A stretch of DNA of 64,000 bases from an uncultured Bdellovibrionales bacterium (GCA_964543815.1 CAZIZG010000001.1:116265-180264), one strand, 5' to 3'; counted from the stretch's first letter, positions 3,447-52,664 are shown. The notes: generated from the letters alone by a model not told the origin. A program made the numbers and translations.

Positions 3447-3483
3447 ATAGTCACACTTCTCTCAAAAGTTCTTAATCATACTT

Positions 3484-3856: not shown

Positions 3857-3872
3857 GAACTTTTAACATTCT

Positions 3873-4071: not shown

Positions 4072-4377
4072 ATGACAGGAGTCATTGAAATGCTGCGTAT
4101 TCGCGTCGAAACCACACCAGAGTTCATCTGCCTTGCGCGGCATGAACATCACGCCGAATTCCTTGGAGCCTTTGTTGGGTTCGAACTCGACGCGGTTCCA
4201 GATCCCGAAAATGAGACGCTCTATCGCGTCTCGGTTGGAGAGGTAGAAAAAGCCCTCCGCCAAAAAACAGGCGGCACCATGGCTGTGGTCTACTGGACGG
4301 GCCACTGGCATCGTACCCAGCACCTGCTGGACGATCCCGTCTACTTCCCCAAGAGTTGCTGCGTCATCGTCACGTAG
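4072..4377 (+). CDS. hypothetical protein (101 aa) in a locally GC-rich islet
   Basis: AAGGAG 7 nt upstream of ATG; followed by terminator 4386-4418; overlapping minus ORF 4009..4323 rejected. Confidence 0.45.
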   Translation: MTGVIEMLRIRVETTPEFICLARHEHHAEFLGAFVGFELDAVPDPENETLYRVSVGEVEKALRQKTGGTMAVVYWTGHWHRTQHLLDDPVYFPKSCCVIVT

Positions 4378-4385
4378 CGCCTACA

Positions 4386-4418
4386 GGCGACCGGAACCCG
4401 GCCGCCTTCTTTTTTTTC
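4386..4418 (+). terminator. Rho-independent terminator
   Basis: GGCGaCCGG-aac-CCGGcCGCC stem followed by TTCTTTTTTTTC. Confidence 0.6.
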
Positions 4419-4421
4419 TAC

Positions 4422-12081: not shown

Positions 12082-12085
12082 CAGT

Positions 12086-13231
12086 ATGTCTCCCTTCCTC
12101 TCTCTCGTTCCATCACACCTCCATAAGAAATACCGGGTGCTCCGAGTTCTTTTATGGTTTAGCATTGTATCCGTGGTCACACTTTTTGCCTTACGGGTTC
12201 TTTTTCCTACGCTACAACAGAGTTTTGATTTCCGTACTCCTGGTTCGAGTCGCAATGCTATCATGAACCCTCGATCACCAGAACTCGCCCCACGAACCAA
12301 TGGTAAGATTGAGTCAGGTGGTACCCTCATCGCCGATACGGCTGTTATTGGCGATTTCTCACTCCTTCAAGTGGCGGTAGTTCTAGAAAAAAAATCTGCC
12401 CTACCAGCATCGCTGCTGTTTTCTCTTCGCCGCTCCTATCAAAGTTTTTTCTATCCCACCGGAGAGGCTGTAACAGCATTTCCAGCAGAATCAAACTATG
12501 CTATTAATGGCCAGTATTATGCCCTCCGGAACGGCACGCTCTACCCCTACGTCAGCGAAGCCGCTTTCCTCTCGCGTTTTCCTCATGACCAGGCTCAAAT
12601 TGAAGATTCTTCATTCCTCAATGAACACCCCATTTCGGATACCTGGCTAGGATTCCGCGTTGGAACCCTTCTCTCTAATGCTACCGGCGTCTTTATTGTC
12701 ACCAACGAAACAGAAGTACGGCCCGTAGGAAGCGCGGAAATTTTTCTCGCCTTGGGGTATAATTTTTCTGATGTCATACCCGCCAGTGAGGAAGAGCTCG
12801 GGGTATACAAACGAGGTCGAATCGTTCTTCTCGGCTTCGCTCATCCAGACGGCACCGTATTATACGACCAGGAAAATAATACTCACTATCTCATAGACCA
12901 GGGCACGAAGCGGCCACTTTTGGGCGTCTATCGTGATTTTCTGCGAGAAAAAACCCATCCTATTCTCGTATCGACAAGAGCGAGCGAACGAAGCATTAGC
13001 TGTACCCTCCTCCCTAATTTTTTTGGAACAAATCTGACCTGTGCCGCACCGCTTGTCTCGCTCACACCCGGCTTTGGCAATGATTTTCAGCTCCAACTCA
13101 ATAGCCCTGAAACCACTATCGATATCAACAACCTGACGCTCTCATTTGAGACTGCCAAAAACAAGCAGAACTTCCTCTCACTTCTCTCCCAAATCAAGCA
13201 GCGCCTCCTTGCTCGCCTTGGCGGCGTCTAA
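12086..13231 (+). CDS. hypothetical N-terminally anchored/secreted protein (382 aa)
   Basis: ATG at 12086 five nt after the previous stop; one N-terminal TM helix then a soluble domain; no recognizable motif. Confidence 0.5.
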   Translation: MSPFLSLVPSHLHKKYRVLRVLLWFSIVSVVTLFALRVLFPTLQQSFDFRTPGSSRNAIMNPRSPELAPRTNGKIESGGTLIADTAVIGDFSLLQVAVVLEKKSALPASLLFSLRRSYQSFFYPTGEAVTAFPAESNYAINGQYYALRNGTLYPYVSEAAFLSRFPHDQAQIEDSSFLNEHPISDTWLGFRVGTLLSNATGVFIVTNETEVRPVGSAEIFLALGYNFSDVIPASEEELGVYKRGRIVLLGFAHPDGTVLYDQENNTHYLIDQGTKRPLLGVYRDFLREKTHPILVSTRASERSISCTLLPNFFGTNLTCAAPLVSLTPGFGNDFQLQLNSPETTIDINNLTLSFETAKNKQNFLSLLSQIKQRLLARLGGV

Positions 13232-24219: not shown

Positions 24220-25449
24220 TTACAATTTTACTTCTACAGTACGCTCCTCTCCTCCACGCAAGATGCGGAGATTGAGAGTGTCGCCTTGATTGAAACGACT
24301 GATGAGTTCGGAGAGTGGATTGTCGAGGTTCACCTCACTATCATTGACGGCTGTGATGATATCCCCGGCCAAAATCCCCGCCTTCATGGCTGGAGAATCA
24401 GCGATGAGCGCCAGTCCGGTACTGCCAGAACGAGAGTACACGAGCGCCCCGCGATCACGTGACAGTCCCCGGCCAAGTGCCAGAGCTTTGGTGATAGAGA
24501 GGTAGTAAACTCCAAGCGTTGGACGCTTCTCGAGAGTACCACTCGTCACATGATTAAACGCATCCCGAACGACATTTGAAGGAATGAGGAACGACTGAAG
24601 CGTATTGTTGATAGTGAGGGTACCCACGAGTCCTACCATTTCCCCATTCCATCCTACAACTGGCCCACCTACAAAAGCTTCTGGTTCAGCCAATCCCATT
24701 TCAAAAACACCTTCCCATTTTTCTGAAGAGGCCACCGTCTTACCAGAAAGGTTGAAAATACGGTTAACGTTGGTGAGGATATCGACAGAAAGGCGATTCT
24801 GGTATTCAGCAAAGGTATTACCAATAGCAATGAGCTTCTTTCCCACACGGGCATCATCGGAATTGGCCAGCGCAATAGCTGGAGTATTAGTAGCGTCACT
24901 CACTCGGAAAAAAGACAGATTGGTCAGTACGTCCCGGCCGACAAAGGCAGCCTCATGTATCGATCCATCAAAGAGTAAAATTGAATACCGGGTCTTTTGC
25001 GTATCAAACGGTAACTCACTATAAGTCACGACTAATCCATCATTGGTCATGAGCACTCCCGTAGTAGTTACCACCGTCTCTGCAGCCGCCCCCAGAGTGG
25101 CCGTATTCCCCTTTACATCCTTTGATTCTGATGGCAGGGCTACGATATTGACCACAGCGGTCGCTGGCTGTGAAACAATTTTTTCTACCGTATCGTCTTC
25201 GCGCACCACCACCTGTTCGGTCTTGTTGATAACCGTCACGTGCTCAGCTGCTTGTTTAAAAAAGTCCCACTGCGATAGATGCTTATTGGCTGCCAGGCGA
25301 GGCACAACAGAGCGCTCAAAAAACACTCCGCCCACACCTCCTAAAATGAGGATAATGGCAGCTAAAAAGGTAAAGAGGATGGCCTTTTTGATGAGAAATG
25401 ATGTCATAGAGAGCGCTCTCTTTGTATCACATTTTTCCATTTCTGGCAA
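24220..25449 (-). CDS. HtrA/DegP-like trypsin-fold + PDZ protein, predicted catalytically inactive
   Basis: 409 aa; N-terminal TM; PDZ GILAGDIITAVNDSEV; expected TNxHV His region reads MTNDGLVV and the GNSGGP Ser region reads AFVGGPVVG (catalytic His and Ser absent). Confidence 0.6.
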   Translation of the reverse strand: MPEMEKCDTKRALSMTSFLIKKAILFTFLAAIILILGGVGGVFFERSVVPRLAANKHLSQWDFFKQAAEHVTVINKTEQVVVREDDTVEKIVSQPATAVVNIVALPSESKDVKGNTATLGAAAETVVTTTGVLMTNDGLVVTYSELPFDTQKTRYSILLFDGSIHEAAFVGRDVLTNLSFFRVSDATNTPAIALANSDDARVGKKLIAIGNTFAEYQNRLSVDILTNVNRIFNLSGKTVASSEKWEGVFEMGLAEPEAFVGGPVVGWNGEMVGLVGTLTINNTLQSFLIPSNVVRDAFNHVTSGTLEKRPTLGVYYLSITKALALGRGLSRDRGALVYSRSGSTGLALIADSPAMKAGILAGDIITAVNDSEVNLDNPLSELISRFNQGDTLNLRILRGGEERTVEVKL

Positions 25450-25451
25450 CC

Positions 25452-26207
25452 CTACACCAGAATTCGCCAGGGCGAACTCAGGAGAAGAAGGAAGATAATC
25501 CCCAGAAAAAACAAGATGCGCAGGGCGGCCTTACGTAGCGAAAGCGTCTCACGAAAAGCATCGAATGAGATATCCCAGATGATAAAATAACAAACTATCC
25601 CAAGGGCCCCGGTTGTGAGATAGCCAAAGGGCCAGAGACTCATCACCCACACCATTTCACCCATGATAAGTCCGAGGAGCGCACTGTAAAGTATCACTCG
25701 GCGACGTTGTTTCTCGTCAACACTCATGAACGTCTCATAGCTCGTCAAAGCTGTACCAAGGAAATAGAGAAGCATCAGTCCCCAGAGAGGAAAGGAGAAG
25801 TTAAGATAGAACCCATACAGTCCAGCGTAGTAAAAGAACATAGCGGCCATGGCAGCCGTGTTAAGGAAGGCTTCGGCAGTTTTATCGGTTGGGGCATGAC
25901 GCAGCCGGTAGTTTCCAAGAAGAGCGAAGTAGTACATGGCAGCACAGAGCACCACGAACACCTGCTGTTTGCCGGGACTATCGATGAGTGATAGGAGCGT
26001 CGGAGCTGAGAGTGACAACAAAATAGGGATGAAAGCATCCGCAAAACGCTCCGTCAGGCGCCGACTGGCCACGAGAGAAATGACAACAAGTGGACCAATG
26101 GCAAGCAAATACCAACTCCACGAGGCCAAGATAGAGCTTTGTGACACCAATTCCAAGCCGACACCAAAAACAATACTGAAGAAGAGGACTGTGAAGTGAA
26201 AAATCAT
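25452..26207 (-). CDS. hypothetical polytopic membrane protein (251 aa)
   Basis: about 7 hydrophobic helices; sits between the two HtrA paralogs. Confidence 0.5.
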   Translation of the reverse strand: MIFHFTVLFFSIVFGVGLELVSQSSILASWSWYLLAIGPLVVISLVASRRLTERFADAFIPILLSLSAPTLLSLIDSPGKQQVFVVLCAAMYYFALLGNYRLRHAPTDKTAEAFLNTAAMAAMFFYYAGLYGFYLNFSFPLWGLMLLYFLGTALTSYETFMSVDEKQRRRVILYSALLGLIMGEMVWVMSLWPFGYLTTGALGIVCYFIIWDISFDAFRETLSLRKAALRILFFLGIIFLLLLSSPWRILV

Positions 26208-26238
26208 GATTTCCCTTTTCTTATCGTTACCTTCTCAT

Positions 26239-27567
26239 TTACTGGCGCTCCTCCAAACGAACCCTGACATCCTTAATATCACCTTTATGCCAAAGCTTGA
26301 GAGTAATTTCGTCGCCAACACTGTGTTGACCCATGTAGTACATAAGACCGTGATTCTCATCTACCTGCTTACCATCAATCTCTAAGATAATGTCGTTTTC
26401 AACAATACCCGCCTTGTCGGCCGGTGATCCTGGTACTACCGCAAAATCGGTAAGCGTATCACCCCTTAGCACGAGCGCTCCGTAATTGAATGGCAAACTA
26501 GTTTTTTTCTTCAAATCATCATTGAGCGTAATCGAACGAACCCCGAGATACGGAAAGGAAATTTTACCAGTTGTTTTGACCTGCTCCACGATACGCTTGA
26601 CCTGATTGATTGGAAGTGAAAATCCAATACTTTCTGCGCCTTGGGCCATAGCAACATTTACCCCAATCACCTCACCGGAGAGGTCAAAAAGTGGCCCGCC
26701 CGAATTACCAGGATTAATCGCTGCATCAATCTGAATGATATCAGAGAGGTGCTCCGAATCGCCCGAACCAGAACCCGCATTGAGACTTCGTTTCAGCCCT
26801 GATACAATCCCCCGGCTCACTGAATTTTCAAATTCACCGAGTGGATTCCCGATAGCAATAATCGTTTCTCCTGCCCGCACCTGGTCAGAGTCACCCAGCA
26901 CGAGAGCTGGATATCCACTTCCCTCAATCTTGATGACAGCGATATCATTACTCGGATCACGAGCTAAAACTTTGGCTTGATGTTCAGATTTATCACTCAG
27001 AATAACCGTGTATTCCGCCTGTTCATCAGACACAACGTGTTTATTGGTAACAATAAGACCGTCCGTCGAAACAAAAAACCCCGAACCACTCCCTACTTTC
27101 TGTCTTTCTGTTTCTTGTGGAAGGTTTCGTGATTGATCAGAACCAAACGGACTAAAGAATGGGAAACCAAAAGGGTTATTGAAATAATTTCTCACCTTGG
27201 GAACATCCTTACTGATGACGATACTGACCACGCCCGGTGAGTTTTTTTCTACTAAATCAGCCACCACATTTTCCTCGGCCATGACACGCACCTGCTCTGT
27301 CTTGAGCGAAGAGTCAGTACCCATACCAAGAAAGGTAATTTGCTCAGCAAAAAGACGCTCAATCCGCGGTGCCATAAACCCTCCGAAAAATCCCGTAATG
27401 AGCATGAGACAAAGGAGAGCGAAAGCCCGTACTCGCCCATATCGCCGTTCACCACGACCACAGGCGGCACACTGACACCGTGATACTGTGGGATTCTTCG
27501 TTTGTGTTTCAATAGTTTCTTTTTCCAGTGTATCCATAATTTTGTTGTTAACAATGATACCTCCCAT
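26239..27567 (-). CDS. HtrA/DegP family serine protease with PDZ domain (active-site residues intact)
   Basis: GNSGGPLFDLSGEVIGVN, TNKHVV, DIAVIKI; N-terminal CQCAACG motif then a TM helix. Confidence 0.8.
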   Translation of the reverse strand: MGGIIVNNKIMDTLEKETIETQTKNPTVSRCQCAACGRGERRYGRVRAFALLCLMLITGFFGGFMAPRIERLFAEQITFLGMGTDSSLKTEQVRVMAEENVVADLVEKNSPGVVSIVISKDVPKVRNYFNNPFGFPFFSPFGSDQSRNLPQETERQKVGSGSGFFVSTDGLIVTNKHVVSDEQAEYTVILSDKSEHQAKVLARDPSNDIAVIKIEGSGYPALVLGDSDQVRAGETIIAIGNPLGEFENSVSRGIVSGLKRSLNAGSGSGDSEHLSDIIQIDAAINPGNSGGPLFDLSGEVIGVNVAMAQGAESIGFSLPINQVKRIVEQVKTTGKISFPYLGVRSITLNDDLKKKTSLPFNYGALVLRGDTLTDFAVVPGSPADKAGIVENDIILEIDGKQVDENHGLMYYMGQHSVGDEITLKLWHKGDIKDVRVRLEERQ

Positions 27568-29052: not shown

Positions 29053-29228
29053 AGAAATCCACCAAACCTGGTTAGGCTAATACATGAAAAATGGCGCAAA
29101 GAGAAAAGCAATCATCGACACAACTACAAAAACTGAGACCACGACCCAAAGAGCGTAGGCCTTTTTATGCCATCTTCTAAAACTCATAGGCTCTTTTTCA
29201 CAACTTACCTTGCTATGGTAACAAAAAA

Positions 29229-31484
29229 TCACTCTGGCGACAACCGAACTCCCGTCTCATTTGGAGCTGTTTCGGAAGATTTGGCTGTATCAATAAGCGC
29301 CCGGATACCGTTTGTATCCACCACCGGACGACGGCGTAATGCTTTAAATTTTTTTGGTTCTATATGTTTGGCCTGAGCCAAAGAAAGTGGGGCGTCTGTC
29401 GAGGCATATGCTTGATGGCGAACATCTCTTCGTTCGGATACACGAGACGGTCGGGCCGTCCTGCTTTGTTCATCTGGACGAGCCACTGGGGAAACTGTTT
29501 GCTTTCGCTCTATTTCATTGCGAGCCTTAGCAGTCGCCCGTTGATAATCCCGCAGACAGTCTTTACAGAAAGTTGGTCGACTTCCATCAGGTTTGAACGG
29601 CACTTCAATTTCCAGTCCACAGGTAGCACATACGGCCTGATAGAGTATTTTCTCTGGTACTAATGCTTCAGCATGGACCGCCTCCGTCTGCGCCTCCGCG
29701 TCAGACAAAACGGGTTCATGCTGTGATACTTCAAGAGCTTGATTCTTTTTTTCACCCTGCTCAAAGGCATCCAAATCTACCAACGACGCCTTCTTTGGTG
29801 CCAGCGGTGGTTCAAAAGCCGGCTTGGCAGCTGATGACACCACGCCTTTAAGCAAAATAGCCGCCTCATCCGCTGTGTAGATCTCAGGATTGGAGCCAGA
29901 GGGATCGGGGGTTACCGTATCTTTTGGTGCGGGAGTTGGTAAAGTGATTTTCGGAATCGCCGCATACTTCTGGGCCGAGGGCATCATTTTCTTTGGTGGC
30001 TGTGATGGTTGTGCTGAAACAACTGGAGCCGAGAGTGGCTTCTGAGCTGCTCTCCCCTCGCCAAACTGAGCGGTTGGTTGCGGCATCTTCGGTCGGGGTT
30101 GAGACTGGGATGGCACCCCCAAAGGACGCGACGTTTCTTTGGGTCGCACGGAGGCAACTGGTGGTGCGACTGTTTTCACCAAAGCTTGGCGCTCTTCGGC
30201 TGAGAGCATACCACTCCATCGCATAATTTTTTCTTCCACTTCTTCTTTTTTCGATGTATAGCGCTCCCGGGAAGAATTGATAATTTTTTCTTCATTTCCA
30301 GCATCTTCCAACTTGATAGGTGGCAAAGTTGTAGCTGAAAAGGCATCACCAGCAATACCATCAATCATGAGCTTGAGATAAATCTGGTACTTCGGCAAAT
30401 TGACGATATCATTCATCATGAATACCGGCTCAAACTCCTTTTCCAAAAACTCGGCGTCCATAGCCCCTACCCGGAACGAAACGATGCTACCAGCGTTTCC
30501 AAAAATAGCGTCACGCACCTTTTCATCAATCTGGGTCACGTACTGATTGGCCAGGATGAGGTTCAGGTGGTACTTACGCGCCTCAGAAAGAATATTAGCA
30601 AACGACTCCGTAGCAAAATTCTGAAACTCATCAACGTAAAGATAAAAATCCGCTCGAGTATCTTCTGGAATGTCTACTCGACCCATGGCAGCAAGTTGGA
30701 TTTTGGTAATCATCATAGCCCCAAGGAGAGCGCTATTGTCCTCACCGAGACGACCCTTGGAAAGGTTCATGATGAGGATCTTACGCTCATCCATAATCTT
30801 GCGCACATCAAAGGACGAGACGGTCTGACCCACAATATTTCTGATGAGAGCACTCGAAAGGAACTGCCCTACCTTGTTCTGAATCGGAGAAATAACCTCT
30901 TGAAGCACCCGAGGATCCCACTTGGAAAATTCGTCCACCCAAAAGGAACGAACCACTGGATCAGTGATTTTTTCTACTACCCGCTCCCGATAAGATTTAT
31001 CAACCAGGATACGAGTGACACCGAGAAGTGTGCTTCCCGGATATTCAAGCAGACCCAAAATAGCATTACGCAAAATATACTCCAGTCGCGGTCCCCAGGA
31101 ATCAGCCCAGATTTTTTTGAACACTCCCACCAAACCAGAGGCCACCAAGTGACGGTACTCCGGACTGACTTTTTCCATCACATTGAAAGCAATCGGGAAG
31201 TCTTGGTCAGCCGGATTAAAATAGATAACGTCATTAATACGATTTGACGGGATGGCCTTGATGAGTTTTTCAGCCGTATCACCGTGCGGATCAATAAAGG
31301 CGATACCATGACCCTTTTGGATATCCTGAATAGCCAGGTTTTCCAAAAGATTGGTCTTACCCATACCGGTTTTTCCAATCACATACATGTGTCGGCGACG
31401 ATCATCTTGCTTGATACCAAACACACGTTCCTGATTACGGAAGTTCGTCTTGGCAAAAAATGTGACGTCATTCTGTAAAGCCAT
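29229..31484 (-). CDS. TraG/TraD/VirD4-family (type IV coupling-protein-like) ATPase lacking TM anchor, with C-terminal CxxC...CxxC zinc ribbon
   Basis: Walker A VIGKTGMGKT at residues 34-43, Walker B FYLYVDEFQNF, then ARKYHLNLILANQYVTQI (VirD4/TrwB-like); Pro/Ala/Ser-rich linker; CATCGLEIEVPFKPDGSRPTFCKDC. Confidence 0.7.
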   Translation of the reverse strand: MALQNDVTFFAKTNFRNQERVFGIKQDDRRRHMYVIGKTGMGKTNLLENLAIQDIQKGHGIAFIDPHGDTAEKLIKAIPSNRINDVIYFNPADQDFPIAFNVMEKVSPEYRHLVASGLVGVFKKIWADSWGPRLEYILRNAILGLLEYPGSTLLGVTRILVDKSYRERVVEKITDPVVRSFWVDEFSKWDPRVLQEVISPIQNKVGQFLSSALIRNIVGQTVSSFDVRKIMDERKILIMNLSKGRLGEDNSALLGAMMITKIQLAAMGRVDIPEDTRADFYLYVDEFQNFATESFANILSEARKYHLNLILANQYVTQIDEKVRDAIFGNAGSIVSFRVGAMDAEFLEKEFEPVFMMNDIVNLPKYQIYLKLMIDGIAGDAFSATTLPPIKLEDAGNEEKIINSSRERYTSKKEEVEEKIMRWSGMLSAEERQALVKTVAPPVASVRPKETSRPLGVPSQSQPRPKMPQPTAQFGEGRAAQKPLSAPVVSAQPSQPPKKMMPSAQKYAAIPKITLPTPAPKDTVTPDPSGSNPEIYTADEAAILLKGVVSSAAKPAFEPPLAPKKASLVDLDAFEQGEKKNQALEVSQHEPVLSDAEAQTEAVHAEALVPEKILYQAVCATCGLEIEVPFKPDGSRPTFCKDCLRDYQRATAKARNEIERKQTVSPVARPDEQSRTARPSRVSERRDVRHQAYASTDAPLSLAQAKHIEPKKFKALRRRPVVDTNGIRALIDTAKSSETAPNETGVRLSPE

Positions 31485-31486
31485 AG

Positions 31487-32791
31487 TTATTCGAAATCTT
31501 GGATAGGGAGATTAGAGGGGGCACCACCACGCTTGGCCGAAACCCGAGTGAGCGACGGAGCCAATACCGCCATATCCGGAATATGGAATACTGTCGCTAA
31601 CTCTTCCGAACTAAAAAGAAATCGAGTACTCTGCGGATCAGTATCACGCGTAATATAACGACGAAACAGCCGTCGCTGTCGATAACGCAACCGCTCCTCG
31701 GTAAAAATATAGGAGGCGTATGTTTTGGACCCGTCCTCCGGTACCATGCTGTTCAAATTCTGATCATTAAATTGCTTGATACCACCAATAAAAGATGAGA
31801 CGCCAGTCTGCTTACTGAATCCTTCGCGACGACCAACGTAGACCATGCGCATACGTGTTTTATACATCTGTTTAGCCAAATTGGCCTGAAGTGCCTTGAG
31901 CACATCTTTCTCACCAGGCGAAAGACGAAATTCGAGCGGCTGCTCTTCCTTTTTTTCCGGTTTAGCACCAGCCGTATAGACCATCGGACCCCCGATGAGT
32001 CCCCGGCCAATATTAGAAACAAAATCCATAATATGCGCAAAGAACATCCCAAGAAATCCAGATTTCGCCTCCTTAACCCGACCCAAAAACTCATCAACTG
32101 TCTCCTTTCCCGTTGAATACCATTTCTCACTAATGGGAGTAATAATGTACTGAAGCCACAGGTGTTGCCCAGGACCGAGCTTGCCCATAGTTTCAATCAG
32201 GCCGGCAAGTGGATCAATCATTTTGCCAGTTACGGTCTCCTCGAAATTCCTGTATGTTTTAATCGGATAAAGGTCCGGTTTAAACAATTTGAAATCAACT
32301 CCCCATAAATCCCATTCTTTGTTAGGCACGGTCTTCGGTACGAGGTGTACATAATCCTCCACCTCAACTATTTCCACATTGGGATACTGCGCGTAGAAAT
32401 GAGCTTCAACCAGATTACGAAATCCTACCTGGGTACGAATGTACATATGAACCTGCCCCTCGATACTTACCAATTCCAAAGAAAAGGAGGTGGGAAATTC
32501 CCCTTTGATAAATTCTTCAGCAGCCGTCGGAGATTTGATAACTCCAGCAAATGCCGTGAAAATAGATTCCATAGGAAGCGGACTCGCTTCAATGTCACGT
32601 GGTGGAATAATTTCCAAAAGTACCCATTTCAGTCCGCCCGCAAAATGCCCACCGGCATGAAACATCCACAACAGTTTGAAAACAAAATAGAGCAGTGGTG
32701 GGAACAAAATAAACCACACGCTCATAACAGCAGAAAAAACACCTCCCATGACGGAGAAGAGTTCTTGAAAGTTTGGTAAAAGAGTGCCCAT
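31487..32791 (-). CDS. hypothetical membrane protein (2 N-terminal TM + about 370-aa soluble domain), adjacent upstream of the VirD4-like ATPase
   Basis: stop TAA 31487-31489 and downstream ATG 31482-31484 separated by 2 nt. Confidence 0.5.
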   Translation of the reverse strand: MGTLLPNFQELFSVMGGVFSAVMSVWFILFPPLLYFVFKLLWMFHAGGHFAGGLKWVLLEIIPPRDIEASPLPMESIFTAFAGVIKSPTAAEEFIKGEFPTSFSLELVSIEGQVHMYIRTQVGFRNLVEAHFYAQYPNVEIVEVEDYVHLVPKTVPNKEWDLWGVDFKLFKPDLYPIKTYRNFEETVTGKMIDPLAGLIETMGKLGPGQHLWLQYIITPISEKWYSTGKETVDEFLGRVKEAKSGFLGMFFAHIMDFVSNIGRGLIGGPMVYTAGAKPEKKEEQPLEFRLSPGEKDVLKALQANLAKQMYKTRMRMVYVGRREGFSKQTGVSSFIGGIKQFNDQNLNSMVPEDGSKTYASYIFTEERLRYRQRRLFRRYITRDTDPQSTRFLFSSEELATVFHIPDMAVLAPSLTRVSAKRGGAPSNLPIQDFE

Positions 32792-32932: not shown

Positions 32933-33991
32933 CTACTTGACAGTATAAGCGTTCTTGCCAATCCGCGCAAAAAAAGTATTCAGATTGATGATAACGGTTG
33001 ATTTTTTGACCTGACGAATTTCAAGTACCTGAGCCAATACCTCTTCACGAGACAGCGGCTTCTCTGCCGCCCGCAAAATATCCGTGATAACTTCTTTAAC
33101 AGTGCCGCGCTTGTATCCCCAATCCGAAAGAGCATAGATACCACGACCAACCAATACAAAGCGCTTGTCTTTAATAAGTTCATTATGCACCGTTTGAGGA
33201 TGACTCTTCTTCTTTTTCTGTAATCCGTAACTATCAATCAAATCAGCAATTTCACGGAAATGTAGTGGCTTGGCTGCTGTTTTCAAAACCAAATAAGCCT
33301 TCTCACGAGTTCCGCGGGGTTTGATATCACTCCAGCCAGAGAGTCCCCATTTTCCAAAAACATTCTGCTTGATTTCTTTGGATACTGCGAGCAGACTAAA
33401 AAGCTCCTGCTCACTGACCTCACTGTGCACTTTTTTAAATCGGACGTACAGTTCCTCAGCCTCAAGAGCATCCCCTGCTGTTTCAAGCAATGCCTTAGTA
33501 TTAGCAAGAATCTTCTTCAAACGAGTCAAGGAGAAGTCCTTCAAGCGATAGAGTCGTTCCAAATCCTTAGTGGCCTTTTCTTCTTTGACAATAGCCAACG
33601 CCTCCAAAAAGGCCAAGAGTGCACCTCGTTCCTTTTTGCTCTGAAATGAAAGCTTCTCAAGCAAGTCCTCGGACTTCATCACGCCAAAATGTTCAGAGAG
33701 TGTGCGCTCAATTGAATCCACCACCTGACCAATGGACGGGTGAGATTGTTCCTGCGAGAGAAATCCCAGGGCACTGCCGATAACCTGACGGACACGTTCG
33801 CGAGTAATTTGATACGACTTTCCAATTTCCTCTAGCGTCTTTGGCGTTTCGCTTCCAATACCAAAACGAGCTTCCACAATACTCCGTGAGCGTACCGGCA
33901 GGTGTTCCAAGAGAGCCTGCAGCGTGGTCGAAAAAAGTTCTTTTGATTCCTCTGTCGTTGTGGAGAGAGAACGAGCTTTCGCAGAAGCCAT
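32933..33991 (-). CDS. sigma-70 region-4-like HTH protein with C-terminal winged-helix (RNAP delta/HARE-HTH-like) domain; not a complete sigma factor
   Basis: LPVRSRSIVEARFGIGSETPKTLEEIGKSYQITRERVRQV (region 4.2-like); C-terminal HFREIADLIDSYG...FVLVGRGIYALSDW; no region 2. Confidence 0.55.
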   Translation of the reverse strand: MASAKARSLSTTTEESKELFSTTLQALLEHLPVRSRSIVEARFGIGSETPKTLEEIGKSYQITRERVRQVIGSALGFLSQEQSHPSIGQVVDSIERTLSEHFGVMKSEDLLEKLSFQSKKERGALLAFLEALAIVKEEKATKDLERLYRLKDFSLTRLKKILANTKALLETAGDALEAEELYVRFKKVHSEVSEQELFSLLAVSKEIKQNVFGKWGLSGWSDIKPRGTREKAYLVLKTAAKPLHFREIADLIDSYGLQKKKKSHPQTVHNELIKDKRFVLVGRGIYALSDWGYKRGTVKEVITDILRAAEKPLSREEVLAQVLEIRQVKKSTVIINLNTFFARIGKNAYTVK

Positions 33992-34273
33992 AAAACATGT
34001 CACTAACAAATAATACCCTTAAAAAATCAGTTTCCCGGTCCGTATTGGATCGCTTTATATTAGCGCATAATCCCATTTTTTGTCAAGAGATTCTCCCTTT
34101 GGTCAATTTTGGTTAAAATTACCACTCCCTACCGACCCATTCTCACGGGCCTTCTTGCAAAGGAACTTGCTTGACAAAAAAGATTCATATATAATAAGGA
34201 CACGATTAAAAACAAAAAGCAAAGGGGGCACTCTTGCTCAAAATTTCTTGAGACTGAGTGAAACACAAAAACT

Positions 34274-45356: not shown

Positions 45357-46940
45357 TTAGAGATCGTTTCCGGTGTAGGAAAGATTGAAGCTCTTGTTGA
45401 TAAGTGGAAAATCAGGCACCATGTCCCGCCCAATAACATACGGGAAAAGCTGCCAGTTCAAAAACGAGGGGTCGCGCACTTTGACACGAGAAATAGTTCC
45501 TGTGGCGTCAGTCATCACGAAGTAAGTAATATCTCCACGCCATCCCTCGACCGTTCCTACCGCATGACGATTGGCTAGCAAGGCTGGCATAGCAATACGG
45601 CACTCACTTGTTTCATGAATGAGGAGCGCCAGCACCTGATTGAGCAAGCGAAATGACTGAGTCACCTCACGTGCTCGTACCCGAAAGCGAGCATAGACAT
45701 CACCAGACTTCTCAGTCATCACCCCGAACTGAACCATATCATAGGCCGCATATGGGAAATCCGCCCGAGTATCAATTTCCAGTCCACAGGCCCGAGCAGC
45801 AATACCGACCGCGCCATGATCAGCCGCAACGGCCGAATCGAGAGTCCCTGTCCCTTTAAGACGGTTAAGCATCGAATCACTTTCTTTCGTTACTGCTACA
45901 ACCTCCATATAGTCCTTCTCTAGAAGTTCCAAATCATCATGTAGTTCTTTGACAAGAGCCGTTTCAATATCACGGGTCACACCCCCATAAGCAACGACGC
46001 CACGCAAAAATCGGCTGCCCGTCAAGCGTTCGTTCCATTGCATGACGCGTTCACGAAGCCGGGATCCGTGGCTGCCGCCAAAGGAAAATCCGGTATCCAG
46101 CATAATAAATGCTAAGTCATTGAAATGATTAGCGAGCCGCTCCAACTCACCATAAACTACCCGAAGCAGTTTAGCACGCGTTGGCACCGAAACATCAGCC
46201 ATATCTTCAACCGCCTGAGCAAAAGCCAAAGCATGATGATACGAACTGTCCCCCGAAATACGCTCTGCAAGGGTCAGTTTCTTATCCAAAGCCAAGTGCT
46301 CAAAAAGTTTTTCAGTCCCCTTGTGTACATAACCCAAACGAGGCTCGAGACGCAAAATTTCCTCACCCAAAACACTAAATCGAAAGTGGCCCGGTTCAAT
46401 GATACCGGCATGGACTGGTCCTACTGGAATTTCATAGACGCCTTCACCTTCGTACTTCTGAAATGTCGGATACGCTTTATGCTCTGGTGGTGTCACCACA
46501 GCGTTCCAAGCAAATTCCTTGCGAAGCGGATAAGTATTATCAGGATAATTTTCTTGGTGGAGATTGATACGGTTGGCCTGTGGATGACCAGCTGGAGTCA
46601 AACCGAAGAAAGTCTTGATTTCTTGTTCGTACACCGCAAACTCATGATCAATTGGGGTTAGCGAAGGGAAAGTCTCACTTCCACCCAAAGAAAGAAAAGG
46701 GATAAGAAAAATATTATCTTTCGGTACACCAAAAACATAATATACCCGAAAGGCACCCTGTTCGGCACGCTCATCGGTCGCCGTAACGGTTTTGAGTGGC
46801 AAAGCATGATCATGTTTCAGTGATATCACTAACGATTTCAAATCATGCTCGGATACTTGAAAAAGAAAGCTTCGTCCCTCTTGTTTCAGCTGATAGTTCT
46901 CAAGTCCGAACCGAGTAATCAGGGTATTCTGATCAGTCAT
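45357..46940 (-). CDS. fused NuoC-NuoD / HycE-like large subunit with all four NiFe-ligand cysteines substituted (Ehr-type)
   Basis: GPVHAGIIEPGHFRF, LGYVHKGTEKL (NuoD/HycE blocks); L1 position reads ERISGDSSYHH (RxCGxCxxxH expected); L2 position reads DPSFLN (DPCxxC expected). Confidence 0.75.
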   Translation of the reverse strand: MTDQNTLITRFGLENYQLKQEGRSFLFQVSEHDLKSLVISLKHDHALPLKTVTATDERAEQGAFRVYYVFGVPKDNIFLIPFLSLGGSETFPSLTPIDHEFAVYEQEIKTFFGLTPAGHPQANRINLHQENYPDNTYPLRKEFAWNAVVTPPEHKAYPTFQKYEGEGVYEIPVGPVHAGIIEPGHFRFSVLGEEILRLEPRLGYVHKGTEKLFEHLALDKKLTLAERISGDSSYHHALAFAQAVEDMADVSVPTRAKLLRVVYGELERLANHFNDLAFIMLDTGFSFGGSHGSRLRERVMQWNERLTGSRFLRGVVAYGGVTRDIETALVKELHDDLELLEKDYMEVVAVTKESDSMLNRLKGTGTLDSAVAADHGAVGIAARACGLEIDTRADFPYAAYDMVQFGVMTEKSGDVYARFRVRAREVTQSFRLLNQVLALLIHETSECRIAMPALLANRHAVGTVEGWRGDITYFVMTDATGTISRVKVRDPSFLNWQLFPYVIGRDMVPDFPLINKSFNLSYTGNDL

Positions 46941-46949
46941 AAGCGTACG

Positions 46950-48425
46950 TTAGTGGAGTTGAATCATTGAGAGGCTTGCCGCTGCCTGTTGAATAAGCAT
47001 AGAGAGAGTCTCGGGAACATACCAGCTCAGTACCACAAGGAGAGCTAGCAAAAAAATGAGTGGTACTTGGGTCAACTGGTTGGATTCACCTGATGTTATC
47101 CCTTCCGGCACCTTACCATACAGCATAGTCATCAAATGCTTCAGAAACCCAAAGAACACGATGCCGAGTGCCAAAATCACTACCGCTACCACATACGGGT
47201 AATGCTCCATGCCCGCCGACAAAAGCAAAAGCTCCGTCGTAAACATTCCGAATGGTGGCAATCCAAGAAGAGCAATAAAGGCCACAAAAAAAAGTGGGCC
47301 AGTAACTGGTAGCGTTCGCATCATACCACTGATATGACGCATCTTGGTCGAGCTGTATTTGAGAAAAATATTACCCGCAACAAAGAAAATAAGAGCCTTG
47401 CCAAGAGCATGGTAGAACATATGGAGCAGCGCCGCAAATGTCCCCACACCACCGAAGCCAAAACCAAGTACCAAGAGTCCTGCATGTTCAATACTCGAAT
47501 AAGCCAATAATCGTTTATAGTTTTTCTGAATGAAAATAATGAGCGCAGCGAAAACAATCGAAAGTACTCCAAAGAACAAAAAGAGTTCCGCAGTAAAAGA
47601 AGATTGTAGTGCCGTATCCGTAAGCGCCTTAAAACGAAGTACCGCTACAATCGCCACATTAAGCAGCACACTAGAAAGAAGTGCCGCAATAGGAGTTGGG
47701 GCCTTGGAGTAAGTATCCGGCTTCCAGGTATGCATCGGGACGAGTCCAACCTTGGTGCCATAGCCCACCAAAACAAAGATAAATGCAATCTTGACAATGA
47801 GTGGCTCCATTGAAGTAGCGCTGTCACGAAGCAATTCCCAGGTAATAGACCCTTCTCTCATTTGTGGCAGAGCCAGAAAAAGGAGTGTTCCGAGAAGCGA
47901 CAGAAGTAACCCCAAGGAATTAATAATGAGATACTTCCAAGCAGCTTCCGTAGCAGACTGTTTGTTGTAAAAACTAATGAGAAAAGCAGTCGAAAGTGTG
48001 GTTGCCTCGATAGCAATCCACATCACCACCGGACTCATAGTAGCCACGGCCAGAAACATGGCGAAAAAGAATAATTTGAGTAACAGAAAATATTGGCGCA
48101 CACGACTCGGTCCAATAATCCTCTTCTCTACTTCTGCTCGCAAATACCCAATTGAATACAGACTAGCAAAGAGACCCACCAAAGCAATAATGAAAGAAAC
48201 ATACACTCCAAGCGCATCAAGAGAAAAGAGCTGAGAGGCCTCTACTGCGCCACGATCCACAACTCCGGGGATAAGCGCCAATACAAGGCCAAGCTCAATG
48301 ATACTCGATAAGAGCACTGTCTTTTCGATAAGACGCGTGTGTTTCGATTGAAGGAGCGCAATGAAAAATGCGGCAAGAAACGGAACAGCAATGAGATAAG
48401 TAAGCAGCATAAAATTATTCTTCAA
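46950..48425 (-). CDS. NuoN/HyfF/MrpD-like proton-translocating antiporter subunit
   Basis: 491 aa, about 14 TM, Mrp-antiporter fold motifs. Confidence 0.75.
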   Translation of the reverse strand: MKNNFMLLTYLIAVPFLAAFFIALLQSKHTRLIEKTVLLSSIIELGLVLALIPGVVDRGAVEASQLFSLDALGVYVSFIIALVGLFASLYSIGYLRAEVEKRIIGPSRVRQYFLLLKLFFFAMFLAVATMSPVVMWIAIEATTLSTAFLISFYNKQSATEAAWKYLIINSLGLLLSLLGTLLFLALPQMREGSITWELLRDSATSMEPLIVKIAFIFVLVGYGTKVGLVPMHTWKPDTYSKAPTPIAALLSSVLLNVAIVAVLRFKALTDTALQSSFTAELFLFFGVLSIVFAALIIFIQKNYKRLLAYSSIEHAGLLVLGFGFGGVGTFAALLHMFYHALGKALIFFVAGNIFLKYSSTKMRHISGMMRTLPVTGPLFFVAFIALLGLPPFGMFTTELLLLSAGMEHYPYVVAVVILALGIVFFGFLKHLMTMLYGKVPEGITSGESNQLTQVPLIFLLALLVVLSWYVPETLSMLIQQAAASLSMIQLH

Positions 48426-49074
48426 TGAGACGTTTCATCTTATCAACGTTGAGCGATCCAAACTGACGGTAAATCATTGAGATAAAGATTTGAGCAATAA
48501 TCATCCAGATCACGATATCAAAAATAATGCCCATCTCGAGAGCGGCTGGTTGCCTGATACCAATAAAGGAACCTAAAAGCAATATACTATTCTCGAGAGA
48601 AAGAATTCCTATCACTTGTGAAAACGCCCCTCGTCGATTAATCAGAATGAATATAGAAACAAGAATGATAGCCAAATTGAGTGGCAACACGCCGAACGCC
48701 TCAGGAACCAAAATACCGAGAGGTAAAAATACTTGCGAGTATGAAAAGAGTACCAGTCCCATCAGGACGACGAGCGTCATTGGCGTCGAAAGATAGTTAT
48801 TAGCCGTAAAACGTGTGCCATATCGCCGAATGAGTCGGCTAAAGAAAATAGGTGCCACCCCGGCCTTAATAAAGAGAGTCAGTGCGGCAACCAATACCAA
48901 TCCACGATCTCCTTCCGAAAGACCAATCCAAAAGAGAAACGAAGTCACTACAAGTGACTGGACAAAATACAGCCGGATAAGACTGCGATGGGTCTTGACC
49001 AGATGCATGGCCATGGTAGCAAGAAAAGCAATCAAATCGAGAGAGAAGTACAATTCGTGAGAGTGTTCAATCAT
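48415..49074 (-). CDS. HyfE-like / NuoK-like small membrane subunit
   Basis: 219 aa, 6-7 TM; C-terminal LENSILLLG NuoK-like helix. Confidence 0.55.
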   Translation of the reverse strand: MIEHSHELYFSLDLIAFLATMAMHLVKTHRSLIRLYFVQSLVVTSFLFWIGLSEGDRGLVLVAALTLFIKAGVAPIFFSRLIRRYGTRFTANNYLSTPMTLVVLMGLVLFSYSQVFLPLGILVPEAFGVLPLNLAIILVSIFILINRRGAFSQVIGILSLENSILLLGSFIGIRQPAALEMGIIFDIVIWMIIAQIFISMIYRQFGSLNVDKMKRLIEE

Positions 49075-49084
49075 AACAATCGCA

Positions 49085-50050
49085 TTAAAAGGTAATCGTC
49101 ACTGAGAGAGCGATGACGGAAAGAACAAAGGAGGTAAACAGCAAGTCTGGAACGCGAAAAATACGGAACTTGGCCATGGTTGACTCAATAAAGGCAACAC
49201 TGAAAAGAAGTAGTAACGCCTTCACGGTAAACCACAGCCCAGATGTAAGGAGGAGAGAAGGAAGGAGTGATGTGGCAATACCCCACGGGAAAAACACGTT
49301 TGCCCCCAGAGCAACAAAGATAAGTAGTTTGCTCCAACTCGCCCACTCGATAAGCGCTAAGCGTTTACCGGAGTACTCCAGTATCATGGCTTCATGAATC
49401 ATGGTCAGCTCCAGATGTGTAGCGGGATTATCGACCGGGAAACGGCCGTTTTCTGCTAAGAGAGCAATAAAGAAAGCAAGGAAGGCAATCACGAGTGGGA
49501 GATAGGACTGAAATGGTAAAGACCCCAGACTTTCTGCCATCGTCATCACATTTCCCGTCTGGGCAATAACAGAAGCCACTAAAAGTGAAAAGAAAAGACC
49601 CCCTTCAGCTAAAGCAGCCATTGTCATTTCACGACTTGAGCCAAAACCACCAAACCCACTTCCGATATCCATCCCGGCCAACGCCAGGAAGAATGTCCCG
49701 AGCGCAAAAAGATAAATAAGTGTAATAAAATCACCGCTCGCCAAAAACGACAACGCGTACGGTGTACCCTCAAAGAGAGAAGGTGCAACGGTTGAAAATA
49801 CCGGGACACTCGCCCCAATGAGCAAGGTCACGGCAAAAATGAGAAAAGGAGCAAACCGGAAGACCCAAGAAGCATCCTCAGAAATGACTTCGTCTTTATG
49901 AAATAACTTCCACAAATCACGGTATGGCTGAAACACACTCGCTCCCTCTCGATTCTGCATACGAGCCTTAATCTTGCGAATAATCCCTACCGAAAGTGGC
50001 GAAAGCGCCGGGATGAGTAGGAGTTGGAAAATAAAAATGAGAATATCCAT
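49085..50050 (-). CDS. NuoH/HycD-like membrane subunit
   Basis: 321 aa; 8 TM; N-terminus LSPLSVGIIRKIKARMQNREGASVFQPYRDLWKLF matches NuoH/HycD. Confidence 0.75.
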   Translation of the reverse strand: MDILIFIFQLLLIPALSPLSVGIIRKIKARMQNREGASVFQPYRDLWKLFHKDEVISEDASWVFRFAPFLIFAVTLLIGASVPVFSTVAPSLFEGTPYALSFLASGDFITLIYLFALGTFFLALAGMDIGSGFGGFGSSREMTMAALAEGGLFFSLLVASVIAQTGNVMTMAESLGSLPFQSYLPLVIAFLAFFIALLAENGRFPVDNPATHLELTMIHEAMILEYSGKRLALIEWASWSKLLIFVALGANVFFPWGIATSLLPSLLLTSGLWFTVKALLLLFSVAFIESTMAKFRIFRVPDLLFTSFVLSVIALSVTITF

Positions 50051-50060
50051 ACGTAAAAAA

Positions 50061-52121: not shown

Positions 52122-52124
52122 AGA

Positions 52125-52664
52125 TTAGGAATTAACGGAAGTATTTTCAACTTCAATATCCTCAAAAATTTGAAGCAGTGCCGCTAATACGGCTTTGGGT
52201 GATGGTGGATCACCAGGAATTTTGAAGTCTACAGGAATAACGTCTTCGACACTATTGTGAATACCATACGAATCACGATAAATCCCTCCATCGATAGCCC
52301 CATCCCCAACCGCCACTACAAAACGCGGGGTTGGCATCGCTTCATACGTGTGACGAAGTCCCTGTGCCATATTCCGAGAAACAGGACCCGTGACAAAGAG
52401 CATATCCGCATGACGTGGCGAGGCAACAAAGTGGATACCAAAGCGTTCTACATCATAATAAACATTCCCAAGAGCAGTTAACTCTTGTTCTTCGGCATTG
52501 CTTGATCCGGCCGCTACCTCACGAATAGCCAGTGATCCCTTAAAAAGCTTTTTGACCGATGCTTCAATTTTTTCTCCCAAAACCTCAGCGCTAAGATTCA
52601 GTAGCTCTGAGTGTGGCACCACTAATTTTGGCGTGGCGGCAATTTTACGTAACAGTCGGTACAT
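52125..52664 (-). CDS. NuoB/HycG-like small subunit with all four Fe-S (N2-type) cysteine ligands replaced
   Basis: ASPRHADMLFVTGP (NuoB SPRQADxMxVAG block); expected CC, C in GSCAxxGG and C in PGCPP read SS, GDGAIDGG and PGDPP. Confidence 0.7.
   Translation of the reverse strand: MYRLLRKIAATPKLVVPHSELLNLSAEVLGEKIEASVKKLFKGSLAIREVAAGSSNAEEQELTALGNVYYDVERFGIHFVASPRHADMLFVTGPVSRNMAQGLRHTYEAMPTPRFVVAVGDGAIDGGIYRDSYGIHNSVEDVIPVDFKIPGDPPSPKAVLAALLQIFEDIEVENTSVNS

Follow-up and report, generated by a model that had tools for sequence, protein, structure and literature searches.

A large part of bacterial diversity belongs to the Patescibacteria, and the orphan coupling protein (T4CP) genes found in these bacteria lack an explanation. 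According to published tables, VirD4-type T4CPs of the gene type considered here are present as orphan T4CPs in 2,918 of 3,035 Patescibacteria genomes, and the published counts amount to about two orphan T4CP genes per genome. One such gene lies in a Candidatus Moranbacteria genome, within the stretch of 64,000 nucleotides analysed here (the window), where it is located directly 3' of a gene for a 434-aa membrane protein, the partner. The locus raises the question of what an ATPase of this type does together with its neighbour: an earlier note, made from the sequence of the window, had described the ATPase as an orphan without a membrane anchor and suggested either a split coupling protein or a non-conjugative translocase. 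The partner and the split are undescribed in the published work in which these orphan T4CPs were counted.

The ATPase and its family placement

The ATPase is encoded by an ORF of 751 aa on the minus strand (29229..31484), and the junction with the partner gene, TAA-ct-ATG, leaves 2 nt between both ORFs, as the earlier note had read it. The nucleotide-binding domain of the VirD4/TrwB type covers residues about 1-430 and contains the Walker A motif GKTGMGKT (residues 37-44; 31353..31376, minus strand), the Walker B motif YLYVDEFQ (residues 281-288; 30621..30644, minus strand) and, 3' of Walker B, the ARKY and ANQ motifs. These motifs, which had all been proposed before, are confirmed by an alignment of 18 orthologues (A4), in which G37, G40, G42 and K43 of Walker A, D285 and E286 of Walker B, R303 of ARKY and Q314 of ANQ are invariant. 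A hydropathy scan of the ATPase revealed no segment with a 19-residue Kyte-Doolittle mean of at least 1.6, in agreement with the proposed absence of a membrane anchor. Judged by its motifs and hydropathy, the ATPase is a soluble, catalytically intact VirD4/TrwB-like protein.

The nucleotide-binding domain is followed by a linker (residues 431-610) consisting of 16% proline, 15% alanine and 8% serine, and the C-terminal part comprises a zinc ribbon and then a basic tail. The treble-clef zinc ribbon CxxC-x17-CxxC (residues 614-645; 29550..29645, minus strand) with the cysteines C619-x2-C622-x17-C640-x2-C643 scores above the curated cut-offs of PF23477 (E 6.6e-12, 45.4 bits, cut-off 27) and TIGR04272 (E 3.9e-13, 48.9 bits, cut-off 36); composition and model matches therefore bear out the spacer and ribbon proposed earlier. 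The claim that this C-terminal end is unusual for a coupling protein holds for the zinc ribbon, but not for the flexible extension: T4CPs, TraD and DotL among them, normally have one, and in these two it binds adaptors. A flexible C-terminal extension is thus a feature that the window ATPase and the T4CPs have in common. A CxxC...CxxC/H motif is found in 51 of 68 orthologous ATPase tails, the zinc ribbon being missing from about one quarter of the orthologues. For this type of zinc ribbon, zinc binding has been shown in small proteins of Methanosarcina (PMC12704099).

Pfam matches of the ATPase comprise TrwB_AAD_bind, TraG-D_C and DUF87; with 31.6 bits, it passes the gathering score of 20.5 of PF10412 (TrwB_AAD_bind), and it reaches 24.3 bits compared to 22 for PF12696. 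The nearest solved structures identified in a PDB profile search are TrwB (E 5.6e-8) and DotL (E 5.7e-7). All 18 of the diverse orthologues match PF10412 and PF12696 (TraG-D_C), and 16 match T4SS-DNA_transf. The VirB4-type family AAA_10 is matched by nine of them, ranking below the T4CP families with E values of 4.6e-4 or weaker, compared to a best E value of 6e-17 for the VirD4/TrwB families. The ATPase falls below all NCBIfam equivalog cut-offs for T4CPs (TraD, VirD4) by hundreds of bits, with 47.5 bits vs 366 for SXT_TraD, 37.6 vs 647 for TOL TraD and 32.2 vs 250 for the CD1115 VirD4-like model. VirB4_plasma is matched with an E value of 0.006, and no VirB4 model of Pfam or NCBIfam is passed by either protein of the pair. 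When the ATPase profile was aligned to single pSK41 sequences using hhalign, the VirB4 protein TrsE (probability 87%) outscored the T4CP TrsK (21%); it is thus the profile hits in Pfam, NCBIfam and the PDB that decide between a VirD4 and a VirB4 label, and according to them the ATPase domain is VirD4/TrwB-like in sequence. An FtsK/SpoIIIE translocase, which would combine the motor with a gamma domain and an N-terminus of four TM helices, was considered as well and rejected: the window ATPase has no match to an FtsK Pfam family, and the FtsK_SpoIIIE family is matched by 8 of the 18 orthologues with E values of 2e-3 or weaker.

The partner protein and its fused homologues

The partner (434 aa; 31487..32791, minus strand) consists of an N-terminal membrane helix and a domain with the fold of the VirB4 N-terminal domain. 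It is a probable member of PF26449; a precomputed PF26449.1 domain is present on every listed partner homologue, including a cluster of 100% identity (P0001). The hydrophobic membrane segment comprises residues about 11-47 (32651..32761, minus strand), of which W26 and P31-P32 are invariant. Instead of the two N-terminal TM helices that had been assigned to this region, the hydropathy profile contains one hydrophobic stretch of ~40 residues (about 10-45) with the invariant Pro31-Pro32 mid-way, and the AlphaFold2 model contains one long helix (residues 4-53); the segment may be either a single span or a helical hairpin. A comparable hydrophobic segment is located within the first 80 residues of 114 of 138 partner-family representatives.

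The earlier note had proposed to look for a relationship between the soluble domain and the TM stem or the all-alpha domain of VirD4, but the partner is neither of these missing parts: the structural model identifies its soluble domain as a VirB4 N-terminal-domain fold. This similarity is one of fold: even with the E value relaxed to 10, none of 32 partner-family members matched a Pfam family of the VirB4 N-terminal region, and there is no detectable sequence similarity between the partner and TrsD. EccE of the ESX type VII system, which likewise combines N-terminal membrane helices with a domain in the cytoplasm, accompanies the FtsK-like ATPase EccC; its score with the partner is much lower than that of VirB4, sequence similarity is absent, and no other ESX components were found.

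The partner ends with a conserved C-terminal tail (EELATVFHIPDM...AKRGGAPSNLP; 31487..31606, minus strand), in which E397, A399, H403, P405, P425 and P429 are invariant across two alignments (A2 and A3) and residues 409-434 have a pLDDT below 50 in the AlphaFold2 model. In fused homologues, this tail corresponds to the linker into the ATPase. PHROG 5156 contains both modules: its profile is matched by the partner at positions 29-357 (E 2.9e-7) and by the ATPase at positions 407-815 (E 1.4e-62). Gp156 of Bacillus phage G, a single polypeptide of 825 aa, was found by tblastn with the ATPase (E 2e-43); the partner profile aligns to it over 314 columns (hhalign probability 98.2%, E 3e-14), and the partner tail aligns to QEMSQFIHLPGKGV. 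On an IMG/VR contig (L087), the tail motif runs in frame into ...RHMYIIGKTGTGKS, which likewise represents a fusion. SEML1_0293 of the cultivated Saccharibacterium Ca. Southlakia has 921 aa with PF10412 at 402-719 and adjoins a Sigma70_r4/HARE-HTH gene; its domain coordinates, rather than its sequence, suggest that it is a partner-ATPase fusion. Gp156, PHROG 5156 and SEML1_0293 have the two modules in the same order as the pair, with 825-921 aa when fused. Gp156 lacks the N-terminal membrane helix of the partner, and its hydrophobic segment at 182-207 corresponds to the low-confidence helix 246-266 of the partner; unlike the window ATPase, it contains no zinc-ribbon family found by Pfam.

A split arrangement as in the window is present on the B. 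subtilis plasmid CP121709, which encodes a 272-aa homologue of the partner (hhalign probability 98.1%, E 9.5e-14) and, downstream of it, a 412-aa DUF87 ATPase homologous to the window ATPase (tblastn E 1e-34). The 863-aa ATPase of S. aureus pSA737 has an N-terminal domain with weak similarity to the partner (probability 34%). Both systems are plasmid-borne and part of conjugation-type modules, in which a Replic_Relax relaxase, a TcpC-like protein and a VirB4-like ATPase are also encoded, with the CP121709 split pair adjoining the relaxase; their proteins have neither a TM helix nor a zinc ribbon tail. The same two modules form one polypeptide in other lineages, where the partner tail is a covalent linker. 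Since single-polypeptide forms exist elsewhere, partner and ATPase can be regarded as functionally linked, and the pair represents the split form of a protein which is fused in phages, plasmids and probably Saccharibacteria.

The pair shares its domain order with VirB4 (TrwK of R388; CagE_TrbE_VirB), in which an N-terminal domain of ~350-400 residues precedes an FtsK-HerA-type ATPase, and membrane association occurs at the N-terminal end in both. In the case of VirB4, it is mediated by VirB3, and VirB3-VirB4 fusions exist in some systems (PMC12102498). In contrast to VirB4, the ATPase of the pair is closer to the VirD4/TrwB families and continues into a long, zinc-ribbon-bearing C-terminal tail, the N-terminal domain is encoded by a gene of its own, and the pair is encoded apart from VirB3, VirB6 and VirB8. 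A precedent for the split layout is provided by TrsD and TrsE of pSK41/pGO1, where the VirB4 N-terminal region is a separate small protein encoded directly upstream of the ATPase (PMC12102498); however, TrsE is a VirB4-type ATPase inside a T4SS operon. The T4CPs TrwB, TraD, VirD4 and DotL have the type of nucleotide-binding domain found in the window ATPase, but the latter lacks their N-terminal two-TM domain, and anchoring would be accomplished by a separate protein resembling the VirB4 N-terminal domain. Unlike T4CPs, the pair is also chromosomal, near-universal in the phylum and without relaxase linkage. The proposed split coupling protein therefore stands as far as the split is concerned; with a partner of the VirB4 N-terminal-domain fold, however, the thing that is split is a VirB4-like architecture with a VirD4-like ATPase and not a canonical T4CP.

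The pair in the genomes of Patescibacteria

In the window, the pair is surrounded by housekeeping genes and no mobile element, and the GC content of 0.42-0.52 has no local break at the pair. No VirB4, VirB6, relaxase or pilin gene had been noticed in the window before; consistent with this, a Pfam scan of ~30 of the larger window ORFs identified neither T4SS families nor a relaxase, and a BLASTP search with reference Gram-positive T4SS proteins, an insensitive test, gave no match among window ORFs of at least 90 aa. Upstream of the partner lies a conserved neighbour, the gene for a protein of 358 aa that combines Sigma70 region 4 with a HARE-HTH domain (32933..34009, minus strand), as identified by Pfam and NCBIfam. 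In most of 80 loci, this gene immediately precedes that of the partner, and distant classes of Patescibacteria have the three genes in the same order. No VirB3, VirB6 or VirB8 was found in the flanks of the 80 loci; the pair is syntenic with the Sigma70_r4/HARE-HTH gene and not with T4SS genes. Downstream, DivIC is found in Moranbacteria only.

Of the Patescibacteria loci with room downstream of the partner, 66 of 72 have an ATPase start within 400 nt of it (estimated median intergenic gap 21 nt), so that the co-occurrence of both genes in relatives, one of the checks suggested earlier, is confirmed. Identity across loci is 56-96% for the ATPase domain (74 loci) and 31-82% for the partner. The two genes belong to the chromosomal core of Patescibacteria and lie outside any mobile element. 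By published counts, 2,417 of the 3,035 genomes, among them both Moranbacteria assemblies that were looked at, encode VirB4 and 103 encode relaxases, and only 148 of 5,713 VirD4-type T4CPs are located near virB4. The ATPase is therefore an orphan locally, but the term is overstated, since a T4SS based on VirB4 is encoded at another genomic site in most Patescibacteria. PF26449 proteins beside such ATPases need not stay "hypothetical" in annotation.

Possible functions of the pair

We consider it rather probable that the two proteins make up a single membrane-tethered motor ATPase of the VirB4/VirD4 (FtsK-HerA) superfamily, each being one of its subunits. The helix would anchor the partner in the cytoplasmic membrane and leave the VirB4-like domain on the cytoplasmic side; this domain and the C-terminal tail would dock the ATPase, which may form a ring by analogy with TrwB and VirB4. 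ATP would then drive the movement of a polymer at the membrane, for which DNA is the most likely candidate, ahead of protein, and the flexible tail, the zinc ribbon and the basic end might recruit a substrate or an adaptor, much like the C-terminal extension in TraD and DotL. The function would be that of a membrane-tethered polymer translocase, probably for DNA, and the non-conjugative translocase suggested earlier remains plausible. The saccharibacterial orthologue SEML1_0293 is non-essential in co-culture, which counts against such a motor; as Ca. Southlakia is genetically tractable, this also makes deletions and point mutants feasible. One T4CP-like gene of the phylum thus has an obligate partner with a VirB4 N-terminal-domain fold, which provides it with an architecture, a putative membrane anchor and a testable complex. 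The hybrid layout links the VirB4 and VirD4 families and bears on the divergence of these two T4SS ATPases.

It is possible, although we would put this forward only tentatively, that the Patescibacteria T4SS (VirB4, VirB3, VirB6, VirB8, pilins), which is encoded elsewhere, has its true coupling protein in this pair, acting in trans, so that protein or DNA substrates would be delivered to the T4SS channel in the epibiotic interaction. This proposal overlaps with the two-subunit motor and adds a downstream machine to it. It agrees with the T4CP type of the ATPase, with the wide distribution of VirB4 in the phylum, with the relaxases next to homologues in Gram-positive conjugation modules and with the finding that T4CP genes are often far from virB4 (PMC12102498). 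However, the T4SS genes of Ca. Southlakia are essential and SEML1_0293 is not, the T4SS locus of this organism contains no recognisable coupling protein (Wang et al.), and there is a second, essential paralogue, SEML1_0142, that may be the real T4CP. Furthermore, the gene type occurs in more genomes than VirB4 does and is only rarely located near virB4.

A T4SS-independent housekeeping DNA motor, which might take up or export DNA or serve a process linked to the nucleoid or to transcription together with the Sigma70_r4/HARE-HTH neighbour, is likewise a tentative alternative. The synteny of the three genes across classes, the very high conservation of the ATPase and the housekeeping neighbours, including DivIC downstream in Moranbacteria, fit such a role; the zinc ribbon and the basic tail suggest nucleic-acid binding, and fused homologues are carried by phages without conjugation function. 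In Ca. Southlakia, however, a canonical FtsK is present and essential, hence the pair is not an FtsK replacement, and SEML1_0294, the orthologue of the Sigma70_r4/HARE-HTH gene by architecture and position, is essential, whereas the ATPase is not, which argues against both genes acting strictly in one pathway. The adjacency of DivIC, moreover, is limited to Moranbacteria.

Somewhat unlikely is a more far-reaching reading, in which the pair represents a third, previously unrecognised branch of VirB4/VirD4 proteins, a phylum-wide chromosomal machine apart from conjugation and perhaps also from the T4SS. The VirB4-type N-terminal domain beside a VirD4-type motor could be a relic of the state before both families diverged, and such a machine might, for example, move DNA or nucleoprotein at the membrane, directed by the Sigma70_r4/HARE-HTH protein. 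If true, Patescibacteria would have fixed a motor working outside conjugation.

That the ATPase is an ordinary conjugative TraD/VirD4 of an integrated mobile element, with the other genes just outside the window, is very improbable: it would account for the matches to T4CP Pfam families and for the relaxases next to plasmid relatives, but not for the missing N-terminal TM domain, the housekeeping flanks, the gene order common to distant classes, the even GC content, the missed equivalog cut-offs or the gene's presence in 2,918 genomes vs relaxases in 103, and the earlier expectation that it is not a standard TraD is thereby upheld. A part in anti-phage defence is just as hard to credit, as the PADLOC matches of the ATPase to mad8 (E 2.4e-16) and HerA and of the protein upstream of the pair to MzaA via sigma region 4 are domain-level only (P-loop, sigma region 4), no PADLOC model matches the partner, no nuclease or methyltransferase adjoins the pair and, unlike defence islands, the gene set is near-universal, syntenic and embedded among core genes.

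Domain organisation of the ATPase and its partner

The ATPase and its partner are a real feature, a split and chromosomally fixed ATPase of Patescibacteria composed of a VirB4-type N-terminal domain and a VirD4-type motor. Both ORFs are encoded in the same direction on the minus strand: the partner of 434 amino acids (31487-32791, assigned to family PF26449 through its homologues) is followed by the ATPase of 751 amino acids (29229-31484), and the junction between the partner stop and the ATPase start reads TAA-ct-ATG, which agrees with the spacing for translational coupling claimed in the earlier note. The catalytic site of the ATPase is intact, with a Walker A (GKTGMGKT, residues 37-44), a Walker B (YVDEF) and an ARKY...LANQ block, and the catalytic residues are invariant among the orthologues aligned. 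Hydropathy analysis revealed no hydrophobic segment anywhere in the protein. The gathering score of the Pfam model TrwB_AAD_bind is exceeded, with residues 26-321 aligning to model positions 11-288 of 387, and the score falls hundreds of bits short of every NCBIfam model of coupling proteins (T4CPs). In profile searches, the nearest solved structures are the T4CPs TrwB (5.6e-8) and DotL (5.7e-7), followed by HerA (0.007); VirB4 and FtsK are not among the PDB profile matches. TrwB_AAD_bind and TraG-D_C match 18 of 18 diverse orthologues and T4SS-DNA_transf matches 16 (best E 6e-17, 3.5e-10), while the VirB4-type AAA_10 model and FtsK match nine (4.6e-4) and eight (2e-3) of them, respectively. 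When compared with single pSK41 sequences by hhalign, TrsE, a VirB4 protein, outscored the T4CP TrsK, which is a caveat on the VirD4-type label of the ATPase.

The C-terminal region begins with a stretch containing 16% Pro and 15% Ala (residues 431-610), and the motif C619-x2-C622-x17-C640-x2-C643 scores above the cut-offs of PF23477 and TIGR04272. Of 68 orthologues, 51 have a CxxC...CxxC/H ribbon. The median distance from the ATPase domain to the ribbon is 42 residues, and the Lys-, Glu-, Pro- and Ser-rich segment that follows the ribbon has a median length of 96 residues; orthologues lacking the ribbon retain a disordered basic tail. Such ribbon domains bind zinc in small proteins of Methanosarcina (PMC12704099).

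The partner matched no family in local Pfam and NCBIfam searches, and profile searches of the PDB gave nothing but apolipoprotein noise. It possesses a single hydrophobic stretch (about residues 10-45) with an invariant Pro-Pro at its centre, and its N-terminus is devoid of positive charges. The hydrophobic N-terminus described earlier is present, but its two transmembrane helices are no more than one possible reading of this stretch. An AlphaFold2 model based on a 60-sequence alignment (pLDDT 80.5, pTM 0.76) consists of a single long helix at the N-terminus, an alpha/beta core (residues 56-405) with a low-confidence insert at residues 240-290, and a C-terminal tail, which is disordered in the model, yet invariant in sequence. 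Walker motifs are absent from the partner and no P-loop NTPase besides the VirB4 protein TrwK is found among its matches, which suggests that the matched portion of TrwK is its N-terminal domain. Similarity to pSK41 TrsD or to the N-terminal region of a Rhodococcus 738-aa DUF87 protein was not detected. The VirB4-type fold of the partner and the T4CP profile matches of the ATPase make the pair a hybrid module. The former proposal of a split coupling protein was right in spirit, as the two parts are fused elsewhere, but not as to what the partner corresponds to, namely a VirB4 N-terminal-domain fold.

Fused and split homologues

A single-ORF fusion was found neither in the 150 best representatives of the partner family nor in 74 loci with both genes. 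Elsewhere, the two modules occur in one protein. In the 824-position profile of PHROG 5156, positions 29-357 match the partner and positions 407-815 the ATPase. The C-terminal half of gp156 (825 aa) of Bacillus phage G matches the ATPase (tblastn E 2e-43), and residues 8-323 match the partner profile (probability 98.2%, E 3e-14), including the EELATxYHFP motif; the latter relationship shows at profile level only, and tblastn of the partner against phage genomes gave no match. The gene directly before fused gp156 in this jumbo phage, gp155, encodes an ATPase of the VirB4/TraG P-loop type with 549 amino acids, which results in two neighbouring T4SS-family ATPases (gp155 and gp156 together at 1220-5362 of the phage locus). 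Homologues of the ATPase are likewise present in SPO1-like Bacillus phages. On the IMG/VR contig IMGVR_UViG_3300009537_000513 (3-470), the partner tail reads in frame into the ATPase N-terminus within a continuous ORF (...EELATIYHFP...AKRAPAPAQIP...RMRHMYIIGKTGTGKS...). This ORF breaks after approximately residue 93 of the ATPase, beyond which the sequence is unrelated and looks GC-rich; this may be due to a chimeric contig or a disrupted gene.

In the cultivated Saccharibacterium Ca. Southlakia epibionticum, SEML1_0293 has 921 amino acids with PF10412 at residues 402-719, and SEML1_0294, located directly upstream, carries Sigma70_r4 (27-72) and HARE-HTH (225-283) domains (PMC10633639). This gene order agrees with that in the window and, together with the domain coordinates, suggests that SEML1_0293 is a partner-ATPase fusion. 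A B. subtilis plasmid has the same split as the window, with a 272-aa partner homologue (probability 98.1%, E 9.5e-14) and a 412-aa DUF87 ATPase, followed by a Replic_Relax relaxase, a TcpC-like protein and an "ATP-binding protein". S. aureus pSA737 encodes a fused form of 863 amino acids adjoining a relaxase, and the N-terminal domain of this form is only weakly similar to the partner. The closest ATPase relative found beyond Patescibacteria is a stand-alone 395-aa protein (42% identity, E 2e-99) on the proteobacterial Sulfitobacter mediterraneus plasmid NZ_CP081110 (6983-8170 of the locus), where a transposase is adjacent and the partner gene is absent; it may be a horizontally acquired, truncated copy.

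Conservation and genomic context

The partner family comprises 1,768 clusters at 50% identity with relatives in at least 580 species genomes, and the 80 best loci belong to many lineages of Patescibacteria. The co-occurrence of the pair across relatives, which the earlier note proposed to check, was confirmed as tight linkage: 72 loci offer 1.5 kb or more of downstream sequence, and in 66 of these no more than 400 nt separate the partner from the ATPase start. The median gap is estimated at 21 nt; in two further loci, the genes are 414 nt apart or overlap by 19 nt. Identity across loci is 56-96% for the ATPase domain and only 31-82% for the partner.

The source names of near-identical homologues assign the window to Candidatus Moranbacteria (Patescibacteria/CPR). 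Immediately upstream of the pair, most loci compared carry a Sigma70_r4/HARE-HTH gene, which encodes 358 amino acids in the window (32933-34009, minus strand; Sigma70 region 4 at residues 33-81, HARE-HTH at 236-297). The protein lacks sigma region 2 and was ruled out as RpoD, which is encoded separately (e.g., after dnaG in the Patescibacteria locus L040). The pair is followed by genes for DivIC, a PpiC-type isomerase, two HtrA-like proteases and a DUF5656 protein, and TruD, DnaX, tRNA-Gln and RNase P RNA are encoded at a greater distance; the neighbours are housekeeping genes. Downstream DivIC and PpiC are confined to Moranbacteria loci. No T4SS families were found in about 30 window ORFs scanned, and BLASTP for T4SS proteins against the window ORFs, an insensitive control, gave none. 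No GC island was seen in the window, and promoter and terminator scans gave no signal above shuffled expectation.

Between the ATPase stop and DivIC lies a 36-aa ORF (MSFRRWHKKAYALWVVVSVFVVVSMIAFLFAPFFMY; 29077-29187, minus strand) with one hydrophobic helix. Counterparts with 66-86% identity occupy the equivalent position in the Moranbacteria loci L001, L002, L004, L007 and L008, so that it is probably a real gene for a small membrane protein. The DUF5656 protein, whose family is typical of candidate-phyla bacteria, is encoded between the two HtrA-like trypsin/PDZ proteases, all three genes having the orientation of the pair (24220-27567, minus strand).

Possible role of the pair and further observations

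The partner would anchor the complex in the membrane with its VirB4-like domain in the cytoplasm, a placement compatible with both a single N-out span and a hairpin. Tail and domain of the partner would hold a ring of ATPase subunits, whose motor would translocate a polymer, with DNA as the likeliest candidate; it may serve the T4SS in trans or act alone. By analogy with TraD and DotL, the ATPase tail with its zinc ribbon could be an arm that brings in a substrate or an adaptor.

Quinonero-Coronel et al. (2025) surveyed 3,035 Patescibacteria genomes and identified 5,713 VirD4-type T4CP homologues in 2,918 of them; only 148 of these homologues are near virB4. VirB4 was present in 2,417 genomes and relaxases in 103 (PMC12102498). 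Wang et al. (2023) found that SEML1_0293 is non-essential, with Tn-seq read counts of 5,817, 2,939 and 1,372 from T0 to T2. Essential genes in the same study include SEML1_0294, SEML1_0096 (canonical FtsK) and SEML1_0142, a second paralogue (PMC10633639). In a limited literature search, the partner, its fold and the split/fused relationship were described neither in these papers nor in a 2025 T4SS review. Homologues beside relaxases argue for a coupling ancestry; however, SEML1_0293 is non-essential while the T4SS is essential, which argues against a strict T4SS role. A role as a replacement of FtsK was discarded, as Ca. Southlakia already has a canonical FtsK, which is essential. A defence system and an integrated conjugative element were both rejected on the basis of context and distribution.

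Elsewhere in the window, a membrane-complex cluster (45357-52664, minus strand) encodes a fused Complex1_30kDa/49kDa protein, a NuoH-like NADHdh, two Proton_antipo_M subunits and an Oxidored_q2-like subunit, and resembles a group-4 [NiFe]-hydrogenase or Mrp-type complex; it is an unusual find in a lineage that reportedly has no respiratory chain. A strong AT skew (about 0.3) is seen on the plus strand at 48-52 kb. Two large plus-strand ORFs of 595 (10294-12081) and 432 amino acids (11933-13231) match no Pfam family, the former also lacks a PDB sequence match, and nowhere in the window are GC and AT skew more strongly negative than in their region. Several MAG records (L002, L006, L008, L013, L038, L048, L070 and others) are titled Bdellovibrionales, Gammaproteobacteria, Bathyarchaeia, Pacearchaeota, Binatia or Acutalibacteraceae and carry the Patescibacteria-type cluster; given the 44-74% partner identity (L002, L006, L008, L013) and identical synteny, these taxon labels look wrong.
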